64,000 nt of DNA, taken from positions 7,525 to 71,524 of the forward strand of contig CAYVAJ010000001.1 in NCBI GenBank assembly GCA_964448725.1. The letters are read 5' to 3'. Each line of letters begins with the position of its first letter. Within the stretch, counting starts at the first letter, position 1. This DNA comes from an uncultured Gammaproteobacteria bacterium (lineage in GTDB: Bacteria; Patescibacteriota; Microgenomatia; Levybacterales; GWA1-39-11). The position numbers and the translations under genes were made by a program. The notes beneath the pieces are model-generated. The model saw nothing but the letters and a program-made list of their open reading frames with translations, did not search any database and was not told the DNA's origin. This document shows, piece after piece, positions 345-64,000 of the stretch.

Positions 345-472
345 ACATGTTTAAATCCCAAGTCCCAAGCACCAAATTCCAAATAATACCAAATAGACAA
401 TAATTAAAGTTTCAGAAATTGGATATTCAATTTTATTTGATATTTGAAATTTGTCATTTGGTACTTGCAAAA

Positions 473-1507: not shown

Positions 1508-1593
1508 GTTTTTTTATAAAAACTAAAAGCATAAAACTTTCATTTAATTCCTTTATCTTTACACTTTCAGATTCTTCTTGTATTATACAAAAT

Positions 1594-1890
1594 ATGGCCA
1601 GCAAAACTAAAAATAACAAAAGTGAAGAAGCCAAGAAGCTTCATATTGAAGTTGTACGACAAATGCTTACTTTGGCCACTTCAGGATTTGGATTGGTCGC
1701 AGCACTCGCCTGGAATGAGTTTGTGAAAGCGCTCGTAGAAAATTATATTAAAAAATATCTTCCTGAAGGGAGCCAAACGATTTCTTTACTTCTCTACGCA
1801 ATTATAGTAACACTTCTTGCGGTTATAGTTACACTCCAGTTATCAAAACTTTTAAAAAGTCTTGATCCTGACAGTAAATCTAAAAAATAA
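1594..1890 (+). CDS. small hypothetical membrane protein
   Basis: 98-aa ORF with two hydrophobic segments. No recognisable motif. Confidence 0.35.
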   Translation: MASKTKNNKSEEAKKLHIEVVRQMLTLATSGFGLVAALAWNEFVKALVENYIKKYLPEGSQTISLLLYAIIVTLLAVIVTLQLSKLLKSLDPDSKSKK

Positions 1891-1909
1891 AGAATCATTA
1901 TAATTCTGA

Positions 1910-8546: not shown

Positions 8547-8585
8547 AGATGCATTTCATTATAACAAAGTATGAGTAGTCATTAA

Positions 8586-8614
8586 GCCAAAAAAAGGCCC
8601 CTCCTCAGGCCTTT
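8586..8614 (-). terminator. Rho-independent terminator (AAAGGCC-cctcctca-GGCCTTT; 7-T run on minus strand)
   Basis: Perfect 7-bp stem flanked by an A-run and T-run, immediately downstream of minus-strand ORF 8670..8855. Confidence 0.55.
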
Positions 8615-8669
8615 ATTAACCCGAGAAGGGGCAAGATTCAGTACAGCTGTACTGAAAATAGATGCGAAC

Positions 8670-8855
8670 CTACTTGCGCAGCTCCATGATTGTGAACGCA
8701 AGCACCAATCCAACCGCAATGAAGTAGACCGACAGCCCCACAATAGCGATCAGAACAGCCATTAAAATAATGGCAGCCATAATGACTCCCACTAAATCCA
8801 GAGCAGAGTCCTCATGAGCAGTGTAATACGCTGGGCCGTGATTATGCCGGGACAT
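8670..8855 (-). CDS. small hydrophobic protein (61 aa, 1-2 TM)
   Basis: ORF in a GC-enriched segment, followed by a good terminator. No motif. Confidence 0.35.
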   Translation of the reverse strand: MSRHNHGPAYYTAHEDSALDLVGVIMAAIILMAVLIAIVGLSVYFIAVGLVLAFTIMELRK

Positions 8856-9032
8856 TGTCTTATCCTTCCGACCCTTTCGGGAATAATACAGACAACAAGG
8901 CTCTTGAGTACCCCTTTCTACTTATCCCTATATGGGATACAGCTTTCCATAGCAGCGGCTAGATAACCACTTGGGTCACTCTCCGCTTTGAGAACTGTTG
9001 CATACACCGGAACGGGTGTCTTGAGTCTCACT

Positions 9033-9425
9033 TCAGACTCTTCGAACTCCGGAAATATCCGGAGCATCATCCGGATCAAACAGGAAAAAAACATTTCCAT
9101 CATCATGATGGCTAGTTTCATCTTGTGTTCCTTTCTGCTTTTGGTACCATTCCGCACTAAAAGGTGTTATCCCTTTCTTCTTCTGACCTGACCGTCGCGG
9201 CCATGTCAACGAAGTAACTGTTCTCCAAATTCCACGGAGGAAAAAATAATAGAGATAGGCACAAACACCTATCAACGAGAGCGCCCACCAAATGCCAAGA
9301 GTCTCTTCGAGGTATATAAACCCCATGAGAAATGCTATGGAAAGAGCAAGCGTCCGCGACCATTTTGGCCCTTTAATAGCGAGAATGATTATGAGTAGAA
9401 TTAGCGCAATAAAAACAAAGGACAT
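9033..9425 (-). CDS. hypothetical membrane protein (GC-enriched segment; start and frame uncertain, overlaps alternative ORF 8918..9157)
   Basis: Two hydrophobic helices and an acidic C-terminus. Competing overlapping ORF in another frame. Confidence 0.25.
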   Translation of the reverse strand: MSFVFIALILLIIILAIKGPKWSRTLALSIAFLMGFIYLEETLGIWWALSLIGVCAYLYYFFLRGIWRTVTSLTWPRRSGQKKKGITPFSAEWYQKQKGTQDETSHHDDGNVFFLFDPDDAPDISGVRRV

Positions 9426-9672
9426 CCCACTCCCCTATCACTACCAATCAAATCCGACGCACTATAGGTGCATCTATTGACCTACACTGCGTCAGATTTG
9501 AAAAAAAACATGGAAAGAAAAAGAGGAAATAAAATCCGCATCTATGTTAAAGTGCGAACCCAAAAACAGAGCGACAAGATTTGCCCTGCGTTAGGTCAAA
9601 CTATGGATATATTATAGCAGAAACTGTCAAGGAGGTCAATGCTATAGGATGTTTTTATATATAAGTAATTTG

Positions 9673-11559
9673 TTAGTTAACTGTCTTTTTAGCAGATTTA
9701 GAGGTTTTTTTCTTGCCATCTGATCTCATAATTGCGTCAAACTCATCACCTTCAAGTTTTTCCTTTTTCAGTAGCTCTAATGCAACATCATCAAGTTTAT
9801 TTTTATGTTTTTTAAGAGTTTCAATCGCTACTTTATACCGATCATCAATAATTTGCCGAATCTCTGTATCAATTTTTGACTGCATCACATCTGACACTTG
9901 GGTACCATCCTCATACCTTCGTACTTGATCATTGTCGAAATTTACTGGACCAATGCTACTCATACCATAATCAACTACCATATTTCTGGCTAGTTGTGTG
10001 GCTTTCTGAATATCGTCTCCTGCTCCAGTTGTCATTTCTTTGAAAATTAATTCTTCTGCAGCACGTCCTCCAAGCATGGTTGAAATATGTTCGAGAAGTC
10101 GGGTTTTTGTTTCGTGTACACGGTCCTGTGCAGGAGGAATTAATGTATGTCCCAAAGACATTCCGCGTGATACAATAGAGATAGTATGTACAGGGTCTGT
10201 ATTAGGCATATAATATGACACTAATGCATGGCCAGCTTCATGATATGCAGTAATTTTTTTATCCTCTTCACTTTGCATACGGCGTTTTTCAGGTCCTAGT
10301 TTTACTTTAGTAGCTGATTCTTCAATATGATGCATATCAATTTCTTTTTTGTTTTCTCGCGCAGCAAAAATTGCTGCTTCGTTAAGCATATTCTCTAAAT
10401 CAGCACCAGAGTATCCAACTGTGCGTCTGGCAACCCGGTCCCAGTCAAGCTCTTTCTTGAACGGTTTTCCTTGTGCATGAATCTTCAAAATTTCTCTACG
10501 TCCCTCAAGATCAGGAAGACCGATCATAATGCGTCTATCAAAACGACCAGGGCGAACTAAGGCAGGATCTAGAATATCTGGTCTGTTTGTTGCAGCCATG
10601 ACAACCAACTGTTCATTAGGGGTGAATCCATCCATTTCTACCAAAATCTGATTAAGTGTCTGCTCACGCTCGTCATGACCACCCATAAGACCCCCCCCTC
10701 GTTGACGGCCTATTGCATCTATCTCATCTATGAAAATAATTGCAGGTTGTGTCTTCTTTGCAGTGACGAAAAGATCACGTGCTCGTGCAGCACCCACACC
10801 AACTAACATTTCCATAAACTCTGAACCTGCTATAGAAATGAATGGTACTTGTGCCTCTCCAGCTACTGCCCGTGCAAGTAATGTTTTTCCAGTACCTGCA
10901 GGTCCTACCAACAATACCCCTTTTGGTGTCCGTGCCCCCATTGCTTGATATTTTTCAGGATGTTTCAAGAAATCTACAATTTCAGTTAATTCTTGCTTCG
11001 CTTCGTCCACACCAGCAACTGAGTCAAATTTTACTTTAGGGAAGTCTTTATTAAATGTTTTACCTTTGTTTGATCCGAAAGAAAAAATGCTTTCCTGCGC
11101 TCCTCTTGCTTGGCGCATTATAAAATAGAAAAACCCAACTAGTAGAAGTACTGGTAAGAGTGACCCTAAAACCCCAATCCAGGTATTTATACCTGCCTCA
11201 TCCTTTACTTGAACATTCACTCTGCTTACATCATTCGGCTCAACACCAGCATTATTGAACACTTCATATATATCTGAGTTTATATCTTTTGTAGAAGTTG
11301 CTCTGTCACCATTTTCATAGGTAATCGTTAATTTACTTCCTGATACTTCAATTGCATCAATTTTATCGTCTTTTACATCTTGAATAACTTGAGAGAGAGG
11401 AATATTTTCTGATTGAGAGAGACCGCTAAATCCACTGAGACCGAAAGTAAAAAGCACAAAGAAAAAGAGCAAGAATCCGTAAAGAATAATATCTTTCCAT
11501 GTAATTCGAAACTTTGATCTTTTCTTTTTTGGGGTTTTCTTTTGTGTGTTCAATTTCAC
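9673..11559 (-). CDS. ftsH: ATP-dependent zinc metalloprotease FtsH
   Basis: N-terminal TM segments, AAA Walker [12 protein letters not shown], and HEAGH zinc motif. 628 aa. Confidence 0.95.
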
Positions 11560-11638
11560 CTCTGGATTATATCATAAGATTTCGCAGTTGTGAAGCTAAA
11601 GTGATAATTTTACTATCCTCTTACAATTTGGCAGCTTA

Positions 11639-11875
11639 TTATTTGACGGGATCATGACCACCGGCATTTCCAGGTCTGCAACGAAGCACTCGTTGAACTC
11701 CTAACCTAGTACCCTTTATGACTCCGTATTTATCTACTGCCTGGATCATGTAATTTGAACATGTTGGAGTGAATTTACATTGATCATTGGTACCAAATAC
11801 CGTTTGGGCAATACCTTTTGGAATAAAAGACACCGACTGATACGCATAGATAATTAATACAACGAATTTCTTCAT
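11639..11875 (-). CDS. yidD: membrane protein insertion efficiency factor YidD
   Basis: [10 protein letters not shown] ... [21 protein letters not shown] matches the YidD (PF01809) signature. Confidence 0.8.
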
Positions 11876-12147
11876 GAGCGAATAATAGTAAACTCATCAA
11901 ACTTTTCTGTTATCTCTTCCCATTCAACAACAATATTTTTAACTTGGGAAAAGTATGAACCTTCTTCACATAGTCTGATCAGTTGAATAAGTTTTTCTTC
12001 AGGTCCCTGCACTAATGCTTCAACACGTCCGTCTTGTAAGTTCTTTACCCAACCAGTAAGACCAAGTTTGCGTGCGTGATGCCGCGTATTTGCTCTATAT
12101 CCAACCCCTTGAACAAATCCTGATATCCATAAATGTACTTGCTTCAT
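11872..12147 (-). CDS. acyP: acylphosphatase
   Basis: [11 protein letters not shown] and [12 protein letters not shown] acylphosphatase signatures. 91 aa. Confidence 0.85.
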
Positions 12148-12174
12148 GAGTGTATTGTATCAAACAAGAGGTGT

Positions 12175-13188
12175 CTACCTTCCAAGACCTACAGCTTCAT
12201 TTACTTTTTTAATAAGAACAGAAGATTTACCACGTGCATAGTGAACTCCCTCGTCTAATATGATGTCAAGCTGTGAAGTATCATGCATCAACTCCGTATA
12301 CCGATGCTGAAATGGAGTAAGGAATGAAACAACTGCATCTGCTAGATCCTGTTTAAATTCTCCATACCCAACCCCTGCATATTGCTTTTCAAGCTCAGAG
12401 ATCGTAATACCGGTAACTACTGAATAAATCGTGAGAAGATTTGAAATAGCAGGTTTATCAGAATTATAAGCAATATCACTTCCTGAATCCGTTACTGCTC
12501 GTTTTATCTTATCCCGCACTGTATCTTCATCATCAAGCAAGAAAATTGCACCGTTTGTATTATTATCAGATTTACTCATCTTTGATAGTGGATCTTGCAG
12601 GCTCATGATTCTACCTGCCTCAGTACTAATTTTAGCTTGTGGGACTTTAAATATTTCACCATATCGCGCATTAAATTTCTCAGCCAGGTCACGAGTGAGT
12701 TCAATATGCTGTTTTTGGTCTTCCCCCACAGGGACGATGTCAGTATGATACAGCAAAATATCTGCTGCCATCAAAACAGGATAGTCAAAAAGACCTGCTG
12801 TAGTTGCATCTTGTTGTTTTTGACTTTTGTCTTTAAATTGCGTCATACGCTCAAGCTGTCCAAATGGTGTTAAACAATTCAGCACCCAAGCAAGATATGA
12901 ATGATCAGGATTTTCAGACTGAATAAAAATATGTGATTTTGCAGGATCAATTCCAGCTGCAATATATATTGCAGCAATTTCGCGATTTTTTTCCCTCAGT
13001 ACTTTTGGATCTTGGTAAACCGTTATAGCATGCAAATCAACAATACAAAAAATTGAATCATACTCGTTTTGCATCTGCTTCCATTGTGAAATAGCCCCTA
13101 TATAATTACCAATATGTAAATCTCCTGAGGGTTGAATACCTGAAAAAATAGTCTTCTTCATATGCTTTATTGTATCAAAATTATACAA
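12175..13188 (-). CDS. trpS: tryptophan--tRNA ligase
   Basis: Class I aaRS. GIQPSGDLHIGNYIG (HIGH-like) and KMSKS. 337 aa fits TrpS size. Confidence 0.9.
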   Translation of the reverse strand: MYNFDTIKHMKKTIFSGIQPSGDLHIGNYIGAISQWKQMQNEYDSIFCIVDLHAITVYQDPKVLREKNREIAAIYIAAGIDPAKSHIFIQSENPDHSYLAWVLNCLTPFGQLERMTQFKDKSQKQQDATTAGLFDYPVLMAADILLYHTDIVPVGEDQKQHIELTRDLAEKFNARYGEIFKVPQAKISTEAGRIMSLQDPLSKMSKSDNNTNGAIFLLDDEDTVRDKIKRAVTDSGSDIAYNSDKPAISNLLTIYSVVTGITISELEKQYAGVGYGEFKQDLADAVVSFLTPFQHRYTELMHDTSQLDIILDEGVHYARGKSSVLIKKVNEAVGLGR

Positions 13189-13238
13189 GATAAAAAGCTT
13201 TTACTTGACAGAAAAACTAAAAATACGTTACGCTGACT

Positions 13239-21445: not shown

Positions 21446-21554
21446 AGATGCATTATATCGCTGACATGCAACTCTGTCAAAAAGTTGACAAAAAGAGTTA
21501 GCAGTCGTAAACTCTAGACACGTATAGGCTGCTCTTTATGAATACAGGCGTGTA

Positions 21555-21640
21555 GGTCTGGTAAAGTTTGCCGGACAACGAGGAGAAGGGTTTTGATGTT
21601 CTATCAAAACAATCGGACCTCTGAATATTTATTCAGAGAG
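21555..21640 (+). promoter_or_regulatory. structured 5' leader of glmS (hairpins; weak glmS-ribozyme-like core motifs)
   Basis: About 400-nt untranslated region upstream of glmS. Hairpin GTCTGG..CCGGAC followed by AACGAGGAG ... UAUCAAAACAAUCGG. Perfect 9-bp hairpin CTCTGAATA-tt-TATTCAGAG at 21619..21638. Confidence 0.3.
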
Positions 21641-21849
21641 TATTTGCGGAAACCTTCAGGGTGTAGTACCATCCTAAAGCCTGCTGACAAACCATTATCG
21701 TAAGATTTTGTTGAAAACAGCAAGCACGTTACTCTCCTATACTCCAGAATTATTTACATTTGTTATTGATATTTGACTATTTGCGCACTTTTTATGTGTG
21801 TGTTTTAAAGAGCCAATAATCATTCAATGTTCATCAATATTTTAGTCCT

Positions 21850-51875: not shown

Positions 51876-53651
51876 ATGAACGATGTAGATACAGTAAAAC
51901 AAAAAATTGACCTCATTGACTATATTGGAAGATTCGTGGAACTTGCTCGTGCAGGAAGAAATTTTAAAGGCTTATGTCCCTTTCATAGCGAAAAATCCCC
52001 CTCATTTATGGTGTCTGCTGAACGACAAATTTGGCATTGTTTTGGCTGTCAAAAAGGAGGAGATGCCTTTTCATTTCTTATGGAATATGAAAAAATAGAT
52101 TTTGCTGAAAGCCTCAAAATACTTGCAAAAGAGGTGGGAGTTACTCTAACTCAACCTGTATACCGCACTGAATCAGAACAGAAAAAAGACACCTTATATA
52201 CAATTAATGCAACCGTTGCACAATTTTATCATTACTTACTCACTGAACATCCTGTTGGAAAACAAGCACTTACTTATTTAACTGAGGACAGGGATATGCC
52301 ATCGGGGTTGATTAATAAATTTCAGCTTGGATATGCTCCTCATAAATCGACTGCCTTAGTTGATTATCTGATAAAAAAACGCGGATATAAAACTGAGGAT
52401 ATACAAGCTGCAGGACTTGCCTCTGCTGGACGAGGAAAGCTTACTGATTTTTTTAACCATCGAATCATTTTTCCTATTCAGGATGTCAGAGGAAACATCA
52501 TCGCTTTTTCAGGAAGAGCACTGGATAACGAAACCTTGCCGAAATACATCAACACGAGAGAGACAATGATTTATAAAAAAAGTTCGTCACTTTTTGGGAT
52601 ATTTTTTGCAAAAGATGCAATGCGAAAAGAAAATAAAGTTCTGGTTGTCGAGGGAGAATTTGATGTGATTAGCAGTGTAAAAGAGGGCATAGCACATGTA
52701 GTAGCATTGAAAGGAACAGCATTAACAGAAGATCAGATAAAATTACTGAAACGATATGTCACCAAAGTATTATTTTGTTTTGATTCTGATCTTGCAGGAA
52801 CTGCTGCTCAAAAACGATCAATTGCATTACTGGAAAAAGAAGGTTTGTCAGCAGCAGTTATAGTCCCTCCTGAAGGGAAAGATCCTGATGAATTACTACG
52901 AGAAAACCCTAGCCTCTTTAAAAAGGCGTTAAAAACAGAAGTAAGCGTGTATGATTTTTTAATTGATTCAGCAAAACGTGCAGTAGATCCACATACTCCT
53001 GAAGGGAAAAAAGCAGTACTTGATGAAACATTACCCATGTTATCTCAGATTGATAATGAAGTCATAAAAGAGCATTATTTAAAAAAACTTGCTCAGACAC
53101 TGGAAACATCATATGAATCTGTCCTTCGTCAAAGTAATAAAACTATCTCTAAACCAAGAATAGTTCCTAATATTCCTAAAAAAGAAGCACGAACCCGAGA
53201 AGAAATTACCGAGACTTATTTTCTCGCACTTATGGTACAAGCAAAAAATCCTTATAATGCAATAACTCAAACAATGCCAATATTTGATGGTATAGAACTA
53301 ACATATCCTGCATATCAACGACTATGGACAGAGCTTCTTCAATTCACCCAAGAAAAAAAATCCTTTTCTTTAGATGAATTCTCAAAACAGCTTCCATCTG
53401 AACTCATTGAGACCTTTGACGCATGTTGTCTGGCACCACTTCCTGATTTTGAGACAAAAGAAGACTTTGAGAAAGAAATAAAGAAGGTCGCAACTGATGC
53501 AGCAACACTTGCAGTGCGTAATAAAATAAAATTAATCACTCAACAGGTTCAAGAGTTGGAAAAAAATCCAAATGATGATACAATGACAGAACTGCAAGCA
53601 GAATTTAGCAAGTATACCCAACGTCTTGCGGCAATTAAGCGTGCCTCTTGA
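51876..53651 (+). CDS. dnaG: DNA primase DnaG
   Basis: Zinc ribbon [13 protein letters not shown]...[24 protein letters not shown]...DSDLAG. 591 aa. Confidence 0.9.
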
Positions 53652-54775
53652 ATAGGCTTGTAGTTTTTTGTTACAATAGAGCAATGCCGCAACCCCAAAA
53701 TATTAAAAATTCCAAAATTGAAGAACTTCTAGCAACCGCAAAAAAGCGTGGATACATATCACAAGATGAAATCCTAACTGCGTTTCCTCAACCAGAAAAT
53801 CACATTCTTGAGCTTGATAGCCTCTATGATCAGTTGATTAAAAAAGAAATTGATATTTTTGAGACAGTCGAAGAAGAAAAAGATGCGCAGAAATCAATGG
53901 ATGATTTAGAGAAAGAACTAGAAGCTCTTAATATTATTCAGGGTGGGGCAGTTACAGATCCAGTTCGCATGTATCTCAAAGAAATCGGTCGTATTCCACT
54001 TCTTACTTTTGACCAAGAAGTTGACCTTGCAAAAAGACTTGAAGCAGGAGATATGTCAGCCCGCAAAAAGCTTGTTGAGTCGAACTTAAGACTCGTTGTT
54101 TCAATTGCTAAAAAATATGTTGGAAGGGGAATGGGTTTGTTAGATCTTATTCAAGAAGGAAATCAAGGATTAATCCGCGCAGTTGAAAAATATGATTGGA
54201 AAAAAGGTTTCAAGTTCTCAACATATGCAACCTGGTGGATTAGACAAGCAATTACCCGTGCAATTGCCGATCAAGCCAGAACAATTCGTATTCCAGTACA
54301 CATGGTCGAAAATATTAACCGATTCATGCGCGTTCAACGAAAACTCATGCAAGAGCTCGGTCGGCAACCTACCCCTGAAGAAATATCAGAAGTACTTGAA
54401 ATCGAACCAGATAAAGCTCGGGAAATCATCAAAATTTCGCAACAACCAACAAGTCTTGATACACCAGTCGGTGATGAAGAGGATTCATATCTTGGTGATT
54501 TTATATATGACGTCACTGCACCTACTCTTTTTGACACGGCTTCTCGCGGTTTATTAAAAGAACAGCTCAACTCAGTACTTGGCACACTATCTGACCGTGA
54601 ACGGCGAGTTATTGAAGAACGCTTTGGACTCCGAGATGGAAAACCAAAAACATTAGAAGAGGTTGGTCGTATGTTTGCAGTTACCCGTGAACGTATTCGC
54701 CAGATCGAAGCGAAAGCTCTCCGTAAATTAAGACATCCTTCTCGAGGTAACAAACTAAAAGACTATCTAGAATAA
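53648..54775 (+). CDS. rpoD: RNA polymerase sigma factor RpoD (primary sigma-70)
   Basis: Regions 1.2-4.2 present: [34 protein letters not shown], and region 4 [15 protein letters not shown]...TLEEVG...[13 protein letters not shown]. Confidence 0.9.
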
Positions 54776-54815
54776 AATTGACCAAAGCTGGTGTTCAGTA
54801 TATAATCCCCACATT

Positions 54816-56051
54816 ATGGCAATTGAACAATCTCCTCATACGAACGGAGCAGAAGATCAAGAGCGCATTCCTACAAGTCTTGCACTCATAGAAGATAATG
54901 AGCAAGAAATAAGCATCCTAATTGGACCACAAAATCCTTTACAGCCATCAGAACACGAGTATGTCGCTCATGTATTAAAAAATCTACAAGATAGAATTAT
55001 CGATGTGTCTGAAGAATCATCGTATGATATTGACGATGTAGGGTATATCCTTCGAGAAATTGGTAAATATCCACTTCTCACAGAACATGAGGAGAGAATT
55101 CTTACCTCATCATATCGCCGAATTAACCAGGAAATTAAAAATCTTATCAAAATCAATTCAGATGATGAATTTGAAGATAATAGTTTTGAAATAAACACAG
55201 ATACTATGTCTGATAAAGAAAAGGAGTTTTTCTTACATGAAGGGGATATAACAGAAATATCTGAAAAATACGAAAGCAAAGATTATTCTGAAGAAGAAAT
55301 AAAAGAAAAATTATCTATCCTTTACCCCTCTCGGAATATAATCAGAGACACACTCGTGAATCATAATCTGCGCCTCGTATTTAGTATTGCAAAAAAACAT
55401 ACTGGACGAGGAATATCTCTACCTGATCTTTTCAATGAAGGAAGTATTGGATTAATGTCTGCAATAGAGAGATTTCAACCTGAACTTGGATATAGATTCT
55501 CAACTTACGCTACTTTTTGGATACGACAAGGAATAGGGCGAAGCATAGCAGATACTAGCAGAACAATAAGACTCCCTGTTCATGAATATGATTTTTTTAA
55601 TAAAATAAGGAACACTGATTCTGCTCTATCTTTAAAACTCGGAAGGAAGCCAACCCTGGATGAAATCGCAGTAGAAATGGACGTACCGCAAAAAGAAATA
55701 GAAAAACGTTATAGTAGCGCAGCCCATAAATTAACCACCAGTATTCATACCATTGTGAATGACGAAAAAAAAAGTGAGTTGGGAAATTTCATACCAGATC
55801 CTGATGATCAAATAGAACACATAATTGAGAATGCAGATTATGAAACAATTATTAAGATCGCTCAAGATCTTTTAACTGAACGGGAGTTTGATGTTTTTAT
55901 GAGAAGAGTTGCAACACATCCATCTGAACGTGAAACACTAGACGATGTGGGAAAATTACATGGAATATCCAGAGAAAGAATTCGACAAATTGAGGTAAAA
56001 TCAATGAGGAAAATGGCAAAGGCTCTTAAAGGAAAAGGATACTCTCTTTAA
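54816..56051 (+). CDS. second sigma-70 family sigma factor (group 1/2-like paralog with acidic insertion)
   Basis: LRLVFSIAKKHTGRGISLPDLFNEGSIGLMSAIERF, FSTYATFWIRQGIGRSIAD (region 2). Region 4 [28 protein letters not shown]. 411 aa. Confidence 0.8.
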   Translation: MAIEQSPHTNGAEDQERIPTSLALIEDNEQEISILIGPQNPLQPSEHEYVAHVLKNLQDRIIDVSEESSYDIDDVGYILREIGKYPLLTEHEERILTSSYRRINQEIKNLIKINSDDEFEDNSFEINTDTMSDKEKEFFLHEGDITEISEKYESKDYSEEEIKEKLSILYPSRNIIRDTLVNHNLRLVFSIAKKHTGRGISLPDLFNEGSIGLMSAIERFQPELGYRFSTYATFWIRQGIGRSIADTSRTIRLPVHEYDFFNKIRNTDSALSLKLGRKPTLDEIAVEMDVPQKEIEKRYSSAAHKLTTSIHTIVNDEKKSELGNFIPDPDDQIEHIIENADYETIIKIAQDLLTEREFDVFMRRVATHPSERETLDDVGKLHGISRERIRQIEVKSMRKMAKALKGKGYSL

Positions 56052-56095: not shown

Positions 56096-56375
56096 TCCGC
56101 GATAGCTCAATGGTAGAGCAGGTCGCTGTAAACATAAATGCAGCTCTCGGTAGAAATGCCGAGATGATAACTGGGCTAATTCGGGGAAACCCACACCAAT
56201 AGGTGTTGGGCGATCCCGAGCTAAATTGATGCACAATCTAGTACATCATAAATGTGTAGAGACTATATACCCAGGATCTAAATCGAAAGACATGATCAAG
56301 AGATAGTCCAAGCCTTTTGGTAACAAGAGGAAACTTGTAACGACAAGGTTCTAGGTTCGAATCCTAGTCGCGGAG
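56096..56375 (+). tRNA. tRNA-Asn(GTT) interrupted by a group I intron between anticodon positions 35 and 36 (exons 56096..56129 and 56338..56375)
   Basis: Exon 1 TCCGCGA-TA-GCTC-AATGGTA-GAGC-A-GGTCG-CTGT. Exon 2 TAA-CGACA-AGGTT-CTAGG-TTCGAAT-CCTAG-TCGCGGA-G. Spliced anticodon loop CTGTTAA, discriminator G, U1-A72 as in bacterial tRNA-Asn. Confidence 0.75.
56130..56337 (+). ncRNA. group I self-splicing intron (208 nt, tRNA-anticodon-loop type)
   Basis: P1 GCUGU|AAACAUAAAU-GCAGC with U.G at the 5' splice site. P-like ATTCGGGGAAACCC and Q-like GATCCCGAGC. R-like GTAGAGACTATA (about 56255) and S-like AAGAGATAGTCC (about 56298) forming P7 GACUA/UAGUC. Terminal G (CTTG|TAA). Confidence 0.75.
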
Positions 56376-57932
56376 CCCATTAGTCGTTAATATACCCAAT
56401 TTGGCCTTGTTTAGGACATCTATAACTGGCTGATACTGTATATTAACGACTTTTTTGTTTTCAATTAGGATTTTTTCAAAGAAGAAGTTCAAATAGGCAC
56501 GTTTCGCATTAGTATCTGCTTCCTTATAGGTTGTGGCTATATCCCGTGTTAGTGCTAGTACATCATCAACAATTTTGACATCGATAGTACGGATTTTATT
56601 TATATCCGCTAGCTCTTTTTGAACCTCTAGCATTTCTGCATCAATTTTGGCGTTTAGAACCATAAACCTATCCCGTGTAATAGTTCCTTCTAGTAGCTCT
56701 TCCTCCAATCGTTCCCGCTTTATTTCTAGGGCATCTCTGCGGTTGTAGGATCCCTTTTTGGCTACTTTCACCCGCTCATTGGTATTCTCATATACCTTAC
56801 GGACATTACGCTTTACTGCTTCTATGAATTCTTGGCTAAATTGTAGCTTTTCAACTTCTTTCTCTACCTGTTTTTCCAATTCGTCTATTTCAACATAGCT
56901 AGTAGGGCATTTATGGACACGGCCAATGCCACTGCAATGATAATAGCCAATCCTGCCACCCCTGTTAGCAAATTTCTTCTCATTAACATGCCATTCTGCC
57001 GTGTATCGTTTATCACATAGATTGCAAATAGCCACACCTCGTAATAGGAAATTATGCTTCCGTTGCCTAATGCCAAAATCACCTTTTCTTCGTAGTGTGT
57101 ACTGGACTATATCGAATGTCTTTTTATCAATTAGTGGGATATGTTTTCCCATAGCTTCCATGCCTCCGTATCGCATCCATCCCCAATAAAAAGGGTTCTT
57201 TAAGATGTTGTGCATTAGTGAATAGGCTAATGGCCTTCCTGTTTTGCCTCGCACTCCACTATTGTGCAAGTATTCACGAACTGAAAATATTGAATGGCTG
57301 CCTGTTGCGTACATCTTAAATGCTTGGGTAATGAATGGTGCGGTTTGTGGATCAGGAACAATTATGCGTTTGTCATACGATCCCGTAGGGTTCTTATTGA
57401 CTACATTCATATAACCAACAATAGCTACTGATGGGTAATATCCCGCTTTGAATTTCTCGGCTGCTGTTTGTTTGACTTTATAACTGGTTAGTCTTGGTTG
57501 TATTGAATGGACTACCGCTATCATTTCGTCCATAACTTCGGATAGCGGATTATCATCCATGCTTACAGATCCTGTTAATGGAACAATAGTAGTACCGTGT
57601 TTCTTTAGAGTTTGTTTGATAAATAAATACTCATAGGTGTTTCTTGCTACCCGTGAACTATCCTGCACAATTACATAGTCAATATCTCCTTTTGCACATC
57701 TGGCTAGGATTGCTTGAAATGCGGTTCGTTTATCTAAAGATGTACCGCTAATGCCACCATCAACATATATTTCTTCTGCCAACTCACCACCCAATTCTTC
57801 AACCTTTCCTAATATCTTTGTCTTTTGAACATCTAAACTCAATCCGTTATCACGCTGGCCAACTGTGGAAACCCTGCCATATCCTAAACATCGGGGAATA
57901 TTATTAGTATGCTGGATAGTATCAATTCTCAT
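56364..57932 (-). CDS. large serine recombinase (integrase-type, resolvase N-domain + recombinase domain + zinc ribbon + coiled coil)
   Basis: LGYGRVSTVGQ catalytic serine motif, recombinase domain, CNLCDKRY...YYHC zinc ribbon, long coiled-coil C-terminus. Its 3' end overlaps the last 12 nt of tRNA-Asn. Confidence 0.9.
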   Translation of the reverse strand: MRIDTIQHTNNIPRCLGYGRVSTVGQRDNGLSLDVQKTKILGKVEELGGELAEEIYVDGGISGTSLDKRTAFQAILARCAKGDIDYVIVQDSSRVARNTYEYLFIKQTLKKHGTTIVPLTGSVSMDDNPLSEVMDEMIAVVHSIQPRLTSYKVKQTAAEKFKAGYYPSVAIVGYMNVVNKNPTGSYDKRIIVPDPQTAPFITQAFKMYATGSHSIFSVREYLHNSGVRGKTGRPLAYSLMHNILKNPFYWGWMRYGGMEAMGKHIPLIDKKTFDIVQYTLRRKGDFGIRQRKHNFLLRGVAICNLCDKRYTAEWHVNEKKFANRGGRIGYYHCSGIGRVHKCPTSYVEIDELEKQVEKEVEKLQFSQEFIEAVKRNVRKVYENTNERVKVAKKGSYNRRDALEIKRERLEEELLEGTITRDRFMVLNAKIDAEMLEVQKELADINKIRTIDVKIVDDVLALTRDIATTYKEADTNAKRAYLNFFFEKILIENKKVVNIQYQPVIDVLNKAKLGILTTNGLRD

Positions 57933-58430
57933 AATTCTCTAGTATTTCAATCATCGCTGATTAAACTCAGGCTGGATTCAGCTTAGGAAATTTAGCCGAT
58001 TTCTGTAAGCCTTTCTTATCTTTTGACAGTAGGAAATCAACCATCATTTCAACCCATTTCTCCGCCAACATATCTATGTCATCCTCACGGAGGGGAGTAG
58101 CATTTTTAAGTCGCGTGTTGTTGGTGTTCTTACCGATCTTCTTCATGTTAGTTACTGCTTGGATTAATATCCCTATTTACAAGAAATATGCGACTCGCGA
58201 ATGTATGCGGGGATGTGGGTATTGCGAAAAACTGACTCTTAGTAGTCTTACGATTCTGCCTTAAATGACTGTTAATGAGTCTTTTACAAGAATAAAGTGA
58301 GGAATTACATTGAGGTAAATAAACTATGCTATGTGTACATATGTATACATAAGTTATGTAAACATTTAGTCCATATAAGTGAGTAAACATAAGATTGTTG
58401 TTTGATGTAATGTTTGTAATAGGCATAGAA

Positions 58431-58796
58431 TTAGAAAGGTATTTCGTCAGGATCTATATCTTCAATTTTCGGCGACAAAGCATTTTCGATTAGCTCGTAC
58501 TCTTTGGGATGATAGTGTTCTTTAGCTTTTTGCTTGAACTCTTGGATTACTTGTGCTGTCAGGTTTTTGAATTTAGCCTCATCGAGAACAATAAAACTTT
58601 TTTGATTACCAAATTTACCAAGGGAGGGCATGGTAAAAAATAATTCAGTTTTGTTACCTTTCCAAAATATCGGACAAAATCTCACTTCCGCTTCTTGGTT
58701 GAGGTTCAGTGTGACAATCGCAAGGGGGTTTTCATCAATACCTCGAAATTTTATTTTTATTGTTAAGAAATCAAAAATGCTCATTTCCATATTCAT
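58431..58796 (-). CDS. hypothetical protein (element cargo)
   Basis: 121-aa ORF. No motif. Confidence 0.35.
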   Translation of the reverse strand: MNMEMSIFDFLTIKIKFRGIDENPLAIVTLNLNQEAEVRFCPIFWKGNKTELFFTMPSLGKFGNQKSFIVLDEAKFKNLTAQVIQEFKQKAKEHYHPKEYELIENALSPKIEDIDPDEIPF

Positions 58797-58812
58797 AAAA
58801 AAGACAGCTATT

Positions 58813-59070
58813 TTAGCTGCCTAGATATAAAAGATGCTTCAATTGTTTTAGTGATGCTTGGAATCTCGTCGGTTCAACTCTTGCCTCCATTTTGGAGAAT
58901 TTAGCCACAAGCCGTAAGCAATTATCAGTGTTAGGAAATAGAAAGGTTCCACGATTGGTTAAATCTCTATTAATTCCGCTTAGTTCAATGCCTTCTGTTA
59001 GAAGAAATGCTGCAAGTCCAATATCAGTTGTTTTGAAGAATTTATCATCCTGCATTTTCATAGTAACCAC
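58813..59070 (-). CDS. small hypothetical protein (phage-associated small-protein-like)
   Basis: 85-aa ORF. DIGLAAFLLTEG segment reminiscent of small phage/plasmid proteins. Unverified. Confidence 0.3.
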   Translation of the reverse strand: MVTMKMQDDKFFKTTDIGLAAFLLTEGIELSGINRDLTNRGTFLFPNTDNCLRLVAKFSKMEARVEPTRFQASLKQLKHLLYLGS

Positions 59071-59127
59071 ATTGTCCTAAAAATGCGGATGAATTCGAAT
59101 GAAACTTACAAACTCGTAAAATGCAGG

Positions 59128-59922
59128 TTAGATTGCGAGAAGTTTTTTATAGTAGGTTACGCCTTTTAGAATTCTGTTCTCGTCAGAACCAGAATCGGAA
59201 GAATCAACATTAGGATTATCCATCCATTCTGTTGCAATTTGAACATATGTTTTACCAGCTAAATGTTGCCAATACCATTCACGATATGCACGAATTTTGT
59301 TAACCTTATCAACACGTGGCTTGTAATAAGAAAGCTTTTTATCTGTTTTTAATAGGTATCTAGCAAACCTTACCTGTTCTTTGATCTCAACATCTGTAGA
59401 CGTTGGAGAAACGGAAATCACAACTTGCGGAAGTTGAAAGCTTCCCGTAGTGGTTTGTAACCAATCATTTTCAACAATATGGTATTTTGTAGGATAAAAA
59501 TAATCACCATCAACTGCACCACATAGTAATGCTTGAAGTACAGGTACTAGAAAATATGGTGGACGGCTAAAAATATAACATAGGATTACTGCATCTGTTT
59601 CTAGTTTTTGATATAGCTCTGCATCATTGTCCTCTAAATTAGTCAGGAATGTTTCATTTTGTTTTGCATATTCCTTCAAGCCCTTAATGTCCTCATATAG
59701 CGACATATCGAATCTACCACGATCAACACTATCAAAAGAGTTAATAACTTCATCGTATTTATCCAATGGTGCTAGTTTTAAGTGGTATTTATTCCTTATT
59801 TTTGGTAGCCATTCCAAAAATTCTGGTTTATCAAACAGTATGGATAGCTCTAGGAAATTTCTATCATTATCGGTTTGAACATCAATTTTTAGCCGTGCCA
59901 AATCCTCATACTTCATTTTCAT
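59128..59922 (-). CDS. hypothetical protein (element cargo)
   Basis: 264-aa ORF. No motif. Confidence 0.35.
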   Translation of the reverse strand: MKMKYEDLARLKIDVQTDNDRNFLELSILFDKPEFLEWLPKIRNKYHLKLAPLDKYDEVINSFDSVDRGRFDMSLYEDIKGLKEYAKQNETFLTNLEDNDAELYQKLETDAVILCYIFSRPPYFLVPVLQALLCGAVDGDYFYPTKYHIVENDWLQTTTGSFQLPQVVISVSPTSTDVEIKEQVRFARYLLKTDKKLSYYKPRVDKVNKIRAYREWYWQHLAGKTYVQIATEWMDNPNVDSSDSGSDENRILKGVTYYKKLLAI

Positions 59923-60733
59923 GCTAACTACATTTTACAAGAAAAAATGGATACACCCTATAGAGCCGAGCAATTTGATACAAAATCAGGTAAAATACTC
60001 ACTTAGTGGGGAAATTATGAAAATATTAAAGAGTGCCATTATCGAGCTTGTTAAAAAAAGCAGTATGCCCGATGAACTACATCAGAAGCTAGAAGATCAA
60101 GATTATGAATATGTATACGTAGCGCTCTTAAATGAAGGGCTGTTATCATTTGACGAATACAAGAGGTTACGAAAAGAATACTACGAAAGGAATAAATATC
60201 TCCCTATCATTCAAATAACATCTCCTCGCGCTTTTGGTGAAACTTGGGCAGAAAAACATATCACAGAAACTATTCCACAATTTGAGGCAGCACGTAACAT
60301 CAAGGGGTTAAAAACTCAAGGAATGTATGATGTTGTTTACAGGAAAGATGTTGAATCATTTGATGACGTTATAAAAATGGAAGTAAAAGCTGGAAGAGCA
60401 ATAGATAGGAGTATGCATAATATGCCTTACGATAGAAGGGCGCTAATAAGCGATGAGGTTGATAGAAAATTCGATATGAACTTTCAACAAATGAAGCCTG
60501 ATTGCTTCGATGTAGCCATTTTAATCGGTGTATGGACAGACAAGATAAGATATTGGGTATTTAGTTCAAATGAAATGAGAGAACACAAACATTTTTCATC
60601 AGGACAACATAGAGGCAACAAAGGATATGAGGGACAAATTCACATTAAGACAGAGAATTTGCAGGACTTTAGTCAATTCGAAGTAGAAGAAAGTGAAATC
60701 TTTGAGACAGTATTAAGAAAAGCCGGTAGATAA
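59921..60733 (+). CDS. hypothetical protein, candidate restriction endonuclease partner of the adjacent methyltransferase
   Basis: Convergent with the MTase and overlapping its 3' end by 21 nt. Possible PD-(D/E)xK-like SFDDVIKMEVK. Speculative. Confidence 0.3.
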   Translation: MLTTFYKKKWIHPIEPSNLIQNQVKYSLSGEIMKILKSAIIELVKKSSMPDELHQKLEDQDYEYVYVALLNEGLLSFDEYKRLRKEYYERNKYLPIIQITSPRAFGETWAEKHITETIPQFEAARNIKGLKTQGMYDVVYRKDVESFDDVIKMEVKAGRAIDRSMHNMPYDRRALISDEVDRKFDMNFQQMKPDCFDVAILIGVWTDKIRYWVFSSNEMREHKHFSSGQHRGNKGYEGQIHIKTENLQDFSQFEVEESEIFETVLRKAGR

Positions 60734-62617
60734 TTCTTTTTCAACAAAATCAATCTCTTCACCCGTCATTCCGTATAAATCATAAACTGCCTCATCTAGT
60801 ATATTTGTGGTTCTTTCGAATTCACCTTCACCATTGGACATCTCCGCTTTAAGAGCCATTTTTTCAATTTCTAATTGTTTTTCTTCGGAGACTAAAATTA
60901 ACGGCAATTGTTCTAAATTACCTCGTAGAACTTTCACTGTAAAGAATGTGGACGAATAATAGTATTGCATTAATTTAGAATTCAACAAAGCTAGTAAATA
61001 TCTTGCTCGCATACCTTTAATGTCAGGAATAACACCGTTTATGTTGTTAAGCATGAAGTATGATTTATCATCATATGCAAATATGAGTTTTGAACTAATA
61101 AATTTGTAGAGTAGTTTTTCTGGTGCTAAATAGTAGTCCTTTGGTGCTACTTGCTGGAGCTGCTCTTTGTCATAGATAAAATAATGGCCACTATGGTTAA
61201 TTCGAAATTTATTTACATCACTCCCAACCAGAATTGGGTTTTGCCTAGGATCACCATTAGTGGTTGTTAAGTGCTTCTTATTATTTCCTGTCACTATTCC
61301 AAGGAAGAATTTCGCATTGTCTTTAAGAAATCTAACATCGTTATCTTTTATTTTAGATTTTAACTTATCTGACATACCTGAATGATTAATGTTAAAAATA
61401 TTTTCATGCGTTAAATAGAATTTACTTTGCGGAACGGAGCTAAAGACATTATCTTCAGAAAGTGATTTAGATGTTCGTATATCATTATTTTGTTTCTTAT
61501 CATCATCGCTAGTCGTTTCAGCCACAATAATCAATGCTGGTGCATATACTTTCTTGAATACATCTCCACACACTTGTAGGGTTAAAATCTTACATCGTTT
61601 TAGAAGTTGTTGTCTGGATAACTGATGGTTTTTAATTTTAAGATAAGCTTCTGGTATCAAGAAACCCAACCTTGCACCATCTTCTTTTAGAAAATCCAGA
61701 GAACGTTCTATAAAAAGTGTGAATGTATTAAGCCCTACGCTTCCTATTTGGTAGTATTTCCTGAAATATCTTTTTTCTTCAGGTGATAGTTTTGCACCCC
61801 AAGGCGGATTTCCTATGATTACGTCGATTTTATTTTCAAATTTACTGAGTTGATCACTATTAAAAAGATCTGAGCTTTTTTTAAGAGTGTTTGAATTTAA
61901 CACTCTCGGAACAGTTGACGTAATGAATTCTGCACGTTTAAGCAAATTGAATTGTGTTAATAAACATGCAATCTCATCTAAATCGACACCTATCAAAGCA
62001 GAAAGTATAGAAGAGTACCTATCGTTTTTTTTAATAGCTGGTTTGTTGATCTTGTATAGTCTATTTAGTTCATTAAATGCTTCTAGTAGGAACTGTCCTG
62101 ATCCACATGCAGGATCCATAATTTGCTTGTCTTTTGTTATATCAAGGTTAATCTCTTTTAGTATTTGTCTAACCACTTTCTTTGGCGTATAGTACTGGCC
62201 GTCCTCTTTTCTTCCTAATTGGTTTTGAAGAAGTTGATATAAAAATCCGAGAAAATCATCGTTAGTATCGTGCAGATCGTATTGACTAAGTGTTTGCATT
62301 ATTTTTAGATCAATACCTTCTAGAAGATTTTTATTCTTTAACGGTGATCGCAGTTTCTGTGCTATTTCTTTTCCGTTTTTAATTGCCTCTATTGAAATCT
62401 CATCATTTTTGACAAATGTATTCAATATCGTTTCCATTACATTTGAAAGGATCAACCTGTCTGCATCTTTTCCGTAGACTCCCTCTTTAAGTAGATCTAG
62501 TTTTATTTTATGTAGTTCTGAAGCACATCTGATTAAGTGAGGATGTTCATTCCAATAATCATCAGGGACAATGTAATTATTTTCGTGTGATGTTAGATTA
62601 GATTTTTTATATCTCAT
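60713..62617 (-). CDS. N6-adenine DNA methyltransferase, gamma-class (Eco57I/TaqI-like) with C-terminal target-recognition domain
   Basis: Motif I MDPACGSGQFLLEAF precedes motif IV VIIGNPPWGAK (NPPW). About 350-aa C-terminal TRD. 634 aa. Confidence 0.85.
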   Translation of the reverse strand: MRYKKSNLTSHENNYIVPDDYWNEHPHLIRCASELHKIKLDLLKEGVYGKDADRLILSNVMETILNTFVKNDEISIEAIKNGKEIAQKLRSPLKNKNLLEGIDLKIMQTLSQYDLHDTNDDFLGFLYQLLQNQLGRKEDGQYYTPKKVVRQILKEINLDITKDKQIMDPACGSGQFLLEAFNELNRLYKINKPAIKKNDRYSSILSALIGVDLDEIACLLTQFNLLKRAEFITSTVPRVLNSNTLKKSSDLFNSDQLSKFENKIDVIIGNPPWGAKLSPEEKRYFRKYYQIGSVGLNTFTLFIERSLDFLKEDGARLGFLIPEAYLKIKNHQLSRQQLLKRCKILTLQVCGDVFKKVYAPALIIVAETTSDDDKKQNNDIRTSKSLSEDNVFSSVPQSKFYLTHENIFNINHSGMSDKLKSKIKDNDVRFLKDNAKFFLGIVTGNNKKHLTTTNGDPRQNPILVGSDVNKFRINHSGHYFIYDKEQLQQVAPKDYYLAPEKLLYKFISSKLIFAYDDKSYFMLNNINGVIPDIKGMRARYLLALLNSKLMQYYYSSTFFTVKVLRGNLEQLPLILVSEEKQLEIEKMALKAEMSNGEGEFERTTNILDEAVYDLYGMTGEEIDFVEKELSTGFS

Positions 62618-62627
62618 ACTTATAATT

Positions 62628-63233
62628 CTAACTAAAATTTCCTCTTATTAAACCGACGAATTTACCTCTGATTTCTAGTTGCTCTGGAATAATTATTTCA
62701 TATTTTGGATTTTTAGGTTGTAAGATTGTCCTGCCATTTTGTTGCCCTAATACTTTTAGCGTTGCTCCTTTTTCTGTAATACCCACAACTGTATCTCCTA
62801 TATCTGCTGTCATTTGATGCTTGATTAGAACAACGTCATTATCAAGGATTCCCATATCAATCATGCTATCTCCCTTTACTCTTAATGCATAATAGGACTG
62901 ATTAGAAGATAGCCTAATACTATTTGGAACTTGTATTGATTCTGCATTTTCAATCGGTTCTATGGGTTCACCGGCAGCAATAAATCCTAATAAAGGAATT
63001 GTTTGTTTTTGTGTGATTGGTGCTATACCTCTATTTTTGTGAGGATCACGTTTTAAGTATCCTTTTTTCTCTAATTCTTCGATGTAGTATTGAGCAGTAC
63101 TTAAGTTTTCAGTATCAAGAAATTTAGCCAATTCACGAAGAGAGGGAGCATATCCATTATTAGCCATGAATGAATTTATAAAATCTAATGCCTCTTTTTG
63201 CTTATCCGTTAATGGCTTGACTTTAATATCCAT
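62628..63233 (-). CDS. LexA-like repressor (winged-helix DNA-binding domain + S24 peptidase domain)
   Basis: N-terminal LTDKQKEALDFI...GYAPSLRELAKFL...LEKKGYLKR (LexA DNA-binding domain). C-terminal VKGDSM (Ser) and EIRGKFVGLIR (Lys) catalytic dyad. Confidence 0.8.
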   Translation of the reverse strand: MDIKVKPLTDKQKEALDFINSFMANNGYAPSLRELAKFLDTENLSTAQYYIEELEKKGYLKRDPHKNRGIAPITQKQTIPLLGFIAAGEPIEPIENAESIQVPNSIRLSSNQSYYALRVKGDSMIDMGILDNDVVLIKHQMTADIGDTVVGITEKGATLKVLGQQNGRTILQPKNPKYEIIIPEQLEIRGKFVGLIRGNFS

Positions 63234-63314
63234 ATTATGATAACTTTATGATAAATTTATAGTTGTGTCAAGTCGGTATAAATATATCAAAAGCATGAGG
63301 AGGTGAAGTAAAAA

Positions 63315-63545
63315 ATGGCAAAATCACAGCATGTAGTACCATACGGAAAAAATTGGGCAGTAAGAGGCGAAGGGAATAGTCGTGTTACATCCATTCGTAA
63401 CACGCAAACGGAGGCTTACGAGATTGCAAGACAGATAGCAATTAATAACAAATCTGAAGTCATTATACATCGCCCTAACGGACAAATAAGGGATAAGGAC
63501 AGTTTTGGCCGAGATCCGTTCCCACCTAAAGATAAAAGGCACTAA
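63315..63545 (+). CDS. DUF2188 family small protein
   Basis: HVVPYGKNWAVRGEG...TQTEAYEIARQIA...EVIIHRPNGQIRDKDSFGRDPFPPKD matches the DUF2188 pattern. Confidence 0.6.
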   Translation: MAKSQHVVPYGKNWAVRGEGNSRVTSIRNTQTEAYEIARQIAINNKSEVIIHRPNGQIRDKDSFGRDPFPPKDKRH

Positions 63546-63549
63546 AAAT

Positions 63550-64000
63550 ATGGATGAGTTGGTATTATCACAAGCAACAATCACAGGATTACCCCGTGGA
63601 TTACACGAGGGTACGGTATTGGATTTACAAAAGATAAATTATTTATTTGGTGCGAATGGATCAGGAAAATCACTAACCCTACGACTGATAACCAGGCAAG
63701 CCAAGGAACAAATACGACAAAAGGGGTTAAATCAGAAAGGATATTTTTCTCAATATATAACTGCCACACCACAACAAAGCTTTTATAACGATCACTTTCA
63801 AATTCTAGAAAAAACCGCAACTGAATTTGATCTAGAAAGTGATGATATTACTGGCGGAGCGTTTTATCAACATCTGCAAGAATACCCAGAAATTTTAATA
63901 AAAGTACGTGATGCATTGCAGAAGTATTTAGGTAGATATCCGAACGTAGTCCGTCGAGGAATTAACAATGTTATGACGTTTTTAAGAGAAGAGGAGGATG
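63550..64000 (+). CDS. P-loop ATPase (ABC/OLD/AAA_15-21-like Walker A), truncated by window end
   Basis: YLFGANGSGKSLTL Walker A 30 aa from the N-terminus. ORF still open at 64000. Confidence 0.5.
   Translation, partial: MDELVLSQATITGLPRGLHEGTVLDLQKINYLFGANGSGKSLTLRLITRQAKEQIRQKGLNQKGYFSQYITATPQQSFYNDHFQILEKTATEFDLESDDITGGAFYQHLQEYPEILIKVRDALQKYLGRYPNVVRRGINNVMTFLREEED

Follow-up and report, generated by a model that had tools for sequence, protein, structure and literature searches.

Does a self-cleaving LexA repressor control DNA modification when its gene stands directly ahead of a DNA methyltransferase (MTase) gene? This question is raised by a locus near one end of a 64,000-nucleotide stretch of DNA (the window; contig CAYVAJ010000001.1 of GenBank assembly GCA_964448725.1) from an uncultured tiny-genome bacterium that GTDB places in the Patescibacteriota (Microgenomatia, Levybacterales). 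A preliminary description of the locus, made without database searches, had placed a LexA-type repressor in the controller position of a restriction-modification (RM) system, and had offered as an alternative a CI-like repressor of a mobile element accompanied by an orphan MTase. Our analysis revealed that the linkage between lexA and an MTase gene has been selected throughout the lineage, including forms in which the two proteins are fused, and we consider it probable that LexA controls the MTase and that this coupling is itself selected.

The LexA protein and its restriction-modification partners

The window LexA consists of an N-terminal LexA_DNA_bind domain (PF01726, 2e-16, residues 6–69) and a C-terminal Peptidase_S24 domain (PF00717, 2e-21), as identified with Pfam, and it scores 153.2 bits against the NCBIfam lexA equivalog model TIGR00498 (cut-off, 110.95 bits). 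Across 22 aligned relatives, the A87-G88 cleavage site, Ser123 (in GDSM) and Lys160 are invariant; they align with A84-G85, S119 and K156 of Escherichia coli LexA. The LexA domain and the S24 Ser/Lys dyad read from the letters in the preliminary description are thus borne out, and the protein is, as judged from its sequence, a genuine LexA in which the machinery for self-cleavage is intact. More than 120 clusters of free-standing homologues with 66–98% identity were found in Daviesbacteria, Roizmanbacteria, Pacebacteria and others, and no close relative is present among the 2.9 million viral contigs of IMG/VR.

The gene downstream of lexA encodes a protein with the Pfam domains N6_Mtase, Eco57I and TaqI_C, both the DPACGSG and the NPPW motifs, and a match to the PADLOC model MTase_II at 4e-99, which agrees with the gamma-class MTase proposed earlier. 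The proposed tight, co-oriented arrangement of the two genes also stands, but the gap is 10 nt rather than 11 bp, the MTase ATG lying in a different frame from lexA. Because the MTase gene starts so close to the lexA stop codon and lacks a Shine-Dalgarno sequence of its own, it is probably co-transcribed and translationally coupled with lexA. The corresponding junctions in relatives also lack a Shine-Dalgarno sequence and frequently overlap. We considered whether the separation of the two genes could be a sequencing frameshift in a fused gene and rejected this reading: the gap measures 29 and 14 nt in two relatives with the same MTase and separate genes (L082 and L094), it varies among split loci with other cassettes, and neither open reading frame (ORF) is truncated in the window. 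A Logan contig identical to the window locus was also found, possibly from the same sample.

The MTase gene converges on a third gene, here called R. It had been described as a 270-aa ORF overlapping the MTase 3' end by 21 nt; the ORF and its overlap hold, the latter being present also in L082 and L094, but the length does not. All 340 R homologues are approximately 227–240 aa long and start at the position equivalent to Met33, so that the true start is at 60017, the 32 N-terminal codons are spurious and the protein is 238 aa long. A GGGGA sequence lies 8 nt upstream of this start codon.

The possible PD-(D/E)xK segment noted earlier corresponds to a D105...E122-V-K124 motif that is invariant in the R homologues. 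In an AlphaFold2 model computed from 41 sequences (pLDDT 89.9), D105 directly precedes one beta-strand and E122 and K124 lie within the following strand. The best Foldseek match of this model in the PDB is the NhoI restriction endonuclease (REase; E 1e-3), followed by I-Ssp6803I, a SPARDA nuclease, RecU, SwaI, HinP1I and DpnI, all of which are PD-(D/E)xK enzymes. The PADLOC model REase_II PDLC03414 matches R over nearly its full length at 1.8e-40. A nuclease fold is therefore found by both profile search and structure prediction, whereas searches of R against Pfam, NCBIfam, PHROGs and PDB sequences yielded no match, nor did tblastn against plasmids and phages. In a survey of 80 genome loci with R homologues from many phyla, a homologue of the window MTase lies directly beside the R homologue in 43 (44 of 81 when the window's own region, L001, is included). 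Together with the evidence for a nuclease, this adjacency indicates that the MTase and R form an ordinary type II RM pair, and R is, according to its sequence and model, a type II REase for which sequence-specific cleavage is predicted. No gene for a small Xre-type helix-turn-helix (HTH) controller (C) protein is present in 59923–60016 or anywhere else in the window cassette.

The lexA–MTase linkage is selected across the lineage

We looked up the neighbourhoods of four LexA relatives. In all four, a DNA MTase gene lies directly downstream of lexA and is followed by a REase gene, and the families differ: one has the window-type RM genes, beside rpoD-dnaG (L082), and the others have an N6_N4_Mtase with MvaI/BcnI, an Eco57I/TaqI_C MTase with a C5 MTase and Alw26I, and an N6_N4_Mtase with EcoO109I. 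A metagenome scan that used LexA peptide patterns only returned 79 loci, 68 of which have interpretable downstream sequence. In 58 of these, the next gene, co-oriented with lexA, encodes an MTase or a type IIG enzyme, mostly at a distance of −26 to +46 nt.

The cassettes behind lexA represent approximately 13 unrelated types with at least 10 REase families (R238, which is the window type, Eco57I-like type IIG, MvaI/BcnI, EcoO109I, Alw26I, BsuBI/PstI, MamI, AccI, HNH and PDLC03575). In every type, the MTase-bearing gene comes first and on the lexA strand, regardless of the orientation of R. Counted over 66 unique related loci, MTase-like gene starts number 7.9 per 10 kb in the first kilobase behind lexA, compared with 0.08 upstream and 0.22 more than 4 kb downstream, an approximately 35- to 100-fold enrichment over the flanks, which greatly exceeds chance. 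The earlier placement of LexA in the controller position therefore describes the norm in this LexA clade, irrespective of the RM family. On one contig (L107), two complete lexA-RM modules lie 7.6 kb apart (Table 1); their promoters are identical and their LexAs 83% identical. L124 encodes a second LexA that is 37% identical and is preceded by a different inverted repeat.

In the three closest non-identical genome loci (from Woesebacteria, Paceibacterota and Nomurabacteria), LexA and the MTase form a single ORF of 820–845 aa that is convergent with R. A database search with one fusion yielded at least 47 clusters (90% identity) of 803–888-aa proteins that combine LexA_DNA_bind, S24, N6_Mtase, Eco57I and TaqI_C and carry the source name 'transcriptional repressor LexA', and a search of 1.84 billion representatives yielded several distinct 50%-identity fusion clusters (615–890 aa). 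At the level of single residues, the window LexA and MTase run collinear with the fusions, and the stop and restart fall inside the linker (...LIRGNFS, the stop codon and then MRYKKSNLTSHENNYIVPDDY in the window versus ...ILRNIENELVTTPIPKNKNYIRSDEY in the fusion). Within the window's own LexA clade, L143 encodes an independent fusion of 605 aa with a different, shorter MTase. The fusions retain the AAG site, the GDSM serine and the TLKK lysine. Because neither free nor fused forms show any change in the Ala-Gly site or the Ser/Lys dyad, self-cleavage is likely to be under selection.

Fused loci usually contain a 71-aa HTH_3 C gene ahead of R. An ACTTATAGT element is common to the LexA-MTase and C-R promoters in the fused loci L002, L003 and L172, with ACTGATAGT in place of ACTTATAGT at the LexA-MTase promoter of L003. 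The sharing of this element suggests cross-regulation of the convergent units by the C protein or the LexA domain.

The RM genes are replaced as a unit while lexA is retained. L096 and L088, the LexAs of which are 91% and 90% identical to that of the window, contain an Alw26I-type cassette with two MTases instead of the window genes. DNA homology between the window and L096 ends at 62647, approximately 20 nt before the lexA stop codon, and picks up again precisely where the next conserved gene starts (59922); from there it runs through the DUF5659 gene and small ORFs into a serine recombinase gene (92% identical at the protein level). Among LexA pairs of 85–95% identity, 33 of 54 are associated with different cassette types. 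LexA is thus the stable anchor, and the RM cassettes turn over. At the borders of the cassettes, a search for repeats and att-like sites yielded chance-level matches only, suggesting that the exchange occurs by homologous recombination in the flanks.

The lexA control region and competing readings of the locus

The best promoter match in positions 59000–63700 (10 of 12 positions) lies directly upstream of lexA. Its architecture and fixed distance to the ATG are conserved in approximately 55 related loci, with the consensus cTTGACA-N2-ACTGTAAA-N2-TATCATAAA-N-TTAYYRTAA-(t)ATG. Because the lexA ATG follows the −10 element by 9 nt, the mRNA is probably leaderless. Three heptads overlap the −10 element and the transcription start (Table 1) and stand out as conserved columns when lexA upstream regions are aligned. 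In the window, the pair motif TAYNRTA-N4-TAYNRTA is confined to one place, the lexA promoter; neither motif searches nor alignment revealed a heptad pair ahead of R, and the motif search found no copy of this candidate LexA box elsewhere in the window. In 2.07 Mb of sequence (the fetched loci plus the window), 220 strand-counted matches to the heptad pair were found versus 12 in shuffled sequences, and almost all of them lie in lexA promoters; one notable additional site belongs to the second lexA of L107.

Just upstream of 63233, where the preliminary description had suggested looking for LexA-box-like palindromes, there is thus a conserved candidate, predicted from sequence as an array of three heptads, which we infer to be an autoregulatory LexA operator. 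The promoters of the fused relatives have different 7-nt units, again with an 11-bp period. A LexA box consisting of 11-bp direct repeats has a precedent in Alphaproteobacteria (GTTC-N7-GTTC), and LexA motifs are notoriously variable (PMC8565304).

Divergent from lexA and sharing its control region is a DUF2188 gene, found at the equivalent position in 12 related loci, and a promoter-like sequence (TTAATA-18-TATGAT) lies inside the candidate operator. From this position and this promoter-like site, the DUF2188 gene may be co-regulated by LexA.

The reading that we favour, LexA control of the MTase, can be put as a circuit. A complete type II RM system occupies a lineage-conserved slot directly 3' of the chromosomal lexA. 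LexA would bind the heptads and thereby repress its own mRNA, transcribed from a strong sigma-70-type promoter, and with it the coupled MTase, so that in the steady state the MTase output would be kept low by autoregulation. R would be transcribed independently towards the MTase gene from its own promoter on the opposite strand, which lacks a LexA site. RecA filaments on single-stranded DNA, arising from damage and possibly from DNA uptake, would induce self-cleavage of LexA at Ala87-Gly88; the operon would be derepressed, the MTase would rise and read-through would run antisense into R. The lexA-MTase operon would in this way be coupled to RecA and the SOS signal. The outcome would be a type II form of restriction alleviation, in which newly synthesised, unmethylated host DNA is shielded, and a module entering a naive cell would produce a burst of MTase ahead of repression. 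We hold this specific purpose to be possible but somewhat less than an even prospect, since a different response would be expected from cassettes in which R is co-directional.

Several observations weigh against the proposed control. The heptads are AT-rich and overlap the core promoter, so that their conservation could partly reflect promoter function alone. The window holds no further candidate LexA target and no repair gene, and the MTase may have an internal promoter inside lexA. R is co-directional in many cassettes but convergent in the window; with orientation differing in this way, the cassettes cannot all follow one physiological logic (M up, R down). In addition, the metagenomic loci are partly related by descent (66 of 77 are unique), and the figure of 58 in 68 loci overstates the number of independent events.

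Adjacency to lexA could in principle be passive, lexA forming the conserved left flank of a variable defence island in which RM cassettes are exchanged through homologous recombination and hitch-hike without regulation by LexA. The homology breakpoints exactly at gene borders (62647 and 59922), the lack of recombination-site repeats there, the frequent change of cassette type between closely similar LexAs and the defence-island-like neighbours (DUF2188/PDC-S16 and an AriA/OLD-like ATPase) are all compatible with such a landing pad. However, a neutral slot predicts random orientation and ordinary spacing, whereas each of the approximately 13 cassette types has its MTase first, on the lexA strand, tightly spaced and without a ribosome-binding site. 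Repeated LexA-MTase fusions and a duplicated lexA that leads a second RM module are likewise unexpected from mere adjacency, and we regard this explanation as unlikely.

Another reading accepts regulation but omits the SOS input: the LexA clade would be a paralogue recruited as an RM-specific repressor, a functional counterpart of C proteins or of the N-terminal HTH in SsoII-type MTases, acting by autoregulation without a RecA signal. It would explain why the operator motif occurs essentially only at lexA-RM promoters in the 2.07 Mb and why L107 has two lexA-RM modules, and it accords with the 37%-identical second LexA and different inverted repeat of L124, with the classical C gene that fused relatives also carry ahead of R and with reports that lexA duplications accompanied by motif divergence are common (PMC8565304). 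Against it stand the Ala-Gly site and Ser/Lys dyad, which are invariant in free and fused LexA, and the fact that the protein passes the LexA equivalog model, making a purely dedicated controller improbable in our view. The chance is slighter still that LexA is, as the preliminary description had alternatively proposed, the CI-like repressor of an element bounded by the serine recombinase, with the MTase as cargo or an orphan. A large serine recombinase gene does lie beside a tRNA gene 4–7 kb away, with small ORFs between, and the whole recombinase block also occurs in L096. This alternative is nevertheless contradicted by the cognate REase of the MTase, by the rpoD/dnaG neighbourhood, with lexA-RM lying beside rpoD without the recombinase block in L082 and L090/L116, by the lack of close LexA relatives in viral contigs, by an N-terminal domain of LexA type rather than Xre/CI type and by the core chromosomal content of the rest of the window (FtsH, LeuRS, penicillin-binding proteins (PBPs), DnaG and RpoD).

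Genomic setting, precedents and implications

The features discussed are listed in Table 1 together with others of the region. The window represents core chromosome, encoding ComM and two sigma factors in addition to FtsH, leucyl-tRNA synthetase (LeuRS), PBPs and DnaG. The serine recombinase block follows a different RM cassette in L096. L082 and L090 lack this block, which may represent an integrated module of its own. The tRNA gene beside it, missed by ARAGORN, is split by a group I intron of approximately 210 nt (Rfam RF00028, 61 bits, 56120–56330). Downstream of lexA-RM in L118 and L126, matches to both tRNA exons are adjacent, as in an intron-less copy, and partial matches to the 5' part of the tRNA are present in L090/L116 and L120/L140.

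Just past the window end, beside the DUF2188 gene, a gene for a 528-aa AAA_15/AAA_21 ATPase (L001, 552–2138) resembles those of the AriA/OLD/GajA defence ATPases, and L086 encodes a similar 597-aa ATPase upstream of lexA. The lexA-RM slot is situated in a defence island. On a phage-like contig with an SU10-type portal and capsid genes (L085, 10001–11899), we found an orphan MTase of the window family without LexA or REase, which is plausibly an anti-restriction counter-measure.

Table 1. Features of the window and of the two-module contig L107 (positions in the window unless a locus is named; M, MTase; R, REase; wHTH, winged HTH)
Feature	Position	Strand	Description	Basis
lexA promoter	63243-63271	-	−35 TTGACA 63271-63266, 17-nt spacer, −10 TAAAGT 63248-63243
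Candidate LexA operator	63236-63264	-	heptads AACTATA, TATCATA, TATCATA; consensus TAYNRTA; 11 bp centre to centre
lexA	62628-63233	-	201 aa; LexA winged-helix DNA-binding domain and S24 self-cleaving peptidase domain	Pfam, NCBIfam
Type II gamma-class N6-adenine DNA MTase	60713-62617	-	634 aa; TaqI-like target-recognition domain	Pfam, PADLOC
Predicted type II restriction endonuclease (R), PD-(D/E)xK type	60017-60733	+	238 aa	homologues, AlphaFold2, Foldseek, PADLOC
3'-end overlap of convergent MTase and R	60713-60733		21 nt, no terminator between	coordinates, terminator scan
R upstream region	59980-60016	+	conserved ATCAGGTAAAATACT element (possible −10 TAAAAT), GGGGA ribosome-binding site	alignment with L097, L082, L094
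Exchangeable RM cassette slot	59923-62646		homology to relatives with different RM genes stops at approximately 62647 and resumes at 59922	blastn against L096, L088
Divergent DUF2188 gene	63315-63545	+	shares the lexA control region	Pfam DUF2188; PADLOC defence candidate PDC-S16 2e-33
Block between tRNA and RM cassette	56364-59922	-	serine recombinase (56364-57932, 522 aa), orf59, orf121, DUF5659, orf264
tRNA gene	56097-56378	+	acceptor TCCGCGA/TCGCGGA, T-arm GGTTCGAATCC; split by group I intron
Tandem sigma-70 family genes after dnaG	53648-56051	+	375 aa with region 1.1; 411 aa with long acidic N-terminal extension
glmS ribozyme	21536-21735	+	ahead of a 585-aa ORF; confirms chromosomal context
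L107 module 1	360-2617		lexA, C5 MTase, HNH/wHTH endonuclease
L107 module 2	8001-13200		lexA, Eco57I-like type IIG enzyme, M.Eco57I-like MTase

RM systems are toxic when M and R are out of balance, and the known solutions to this problem are C proteins, HTH-bearing MTases and antisense RNAs. The proposed circuit resembles the C-protein RM systems (PvuII, Esp1396I, Kpn2I and Csp231I) in that a regulator inside the RM unit sets M/R timing and ratio via autoregulation, and the M and C-R units of Esp1396I are likewise convergent. A small C gene ahead of R is shared only by the fused relatives, with their 71-aa HTH_3 gene; the window has neither a C gene nor a C-box. The window regulator differs in being a 201-aa LexA instead of a small Xre-type HTH protein and in preceding M instead of R. 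Moreover, here the regulator is conserved and the RM genes are swapped, whereas C proteins travel with their system. The Parcubacteria relatives are comparable with MTases that bear an N-terminal autoregulatory HTH (M.SsoII, M.EcoRII, M.MspI and M.Ecl18kI), in that the DNA-binding domain at their MTase N-terminus plausibly represses the fusion's own promoter. However, the fusions contain an entire LexA, including the cleavage site and catalytic dyad, so that the repressor part could be self-cleaved off, and in the window the two genes are separated by a stop codon and 10 nt and lie in different frames.

LexA/SOS operons and toxin-antitoxin (TA) modules (lexA-dinF, tisB/istR, symER, yafNO and dinJ-yafQ) offer a further parallel, either as an autoregulated lexA with downstream passengers or as LexA boxes before toxic genes, and RM systems act as TA-like addiction modules. 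A review of RM and TA regulation names LexA only for TA systems (PMC3874152). The passenger in the present case is an RM MTase, and this layout recurs across the lineage with interchangeable cassettes. The S24 repressors of prophages and integrative and conjugative elements, such as CI- or SetR-like proteins, differ from the window protein, which has a LexA-type N-domain, rpoD synteny and no close viral relative.

A shift of balance towards modification in physiological states that leave host or incoming DNA unmethylated is known from the alleviation of type I restriction after DNA damage and from the competence-induced DpnA of the pneumococcal DpnII cassette, and Dpn cassettes with alternative RM contents share a single chromosomal slot. 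In this shift the proposed circuit would be alike; those systems rely on ClpXP proteolysis of HsdR or on a ComX promoter instead of a LexA-led operon. We know of no type II system that is wired to LexA. Our full-text searches yielded no description of a LexA-RM link in Patescibacteria or the Candidate Phyla Radiation (CPR), a 2017 study of the Patescibacteria SOS network lying outside this comparison. That study, by Sanchez-Osuna, Barbe and Erill, is said to describe a small SOS regulon and a LexA motif, which may overlap the operator proposed here.

For annotation, our results correct the labels of dozens of approximately 800-aa 'transcriptional repressor LexA' entries, which are LexA-MTase fusions, and provide the rule of thumb that an active RM system in CPR genomes is to be sought behind lexA. 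The slot is also a natural cassette-exchange site and could serve gene delivery in organisms that are hard to manipulate genetically. If LexA control of the MTase is true, the LexA-led RM operon would be a fourth solution to the balance problem, tying restriction and modification to a single-stranded-DNA alarm. A wider conjecture, which we regard as doubtful, is that the RecA/LexA switch has been repurposed in Microgenomates and Parcubacteria so that its main, and perhaps only, output is RM. Any RM cassette behind lexA would then respond to DNA damage or DNA uptake, and a fused LexA would, on cleaving itself, release or retarget the attached MTase. In these organisms, from which CRISPR is largely missing and which are presumed to scavenge DNA, the SOS circuit would serve self/non-self discrimination, not repair.

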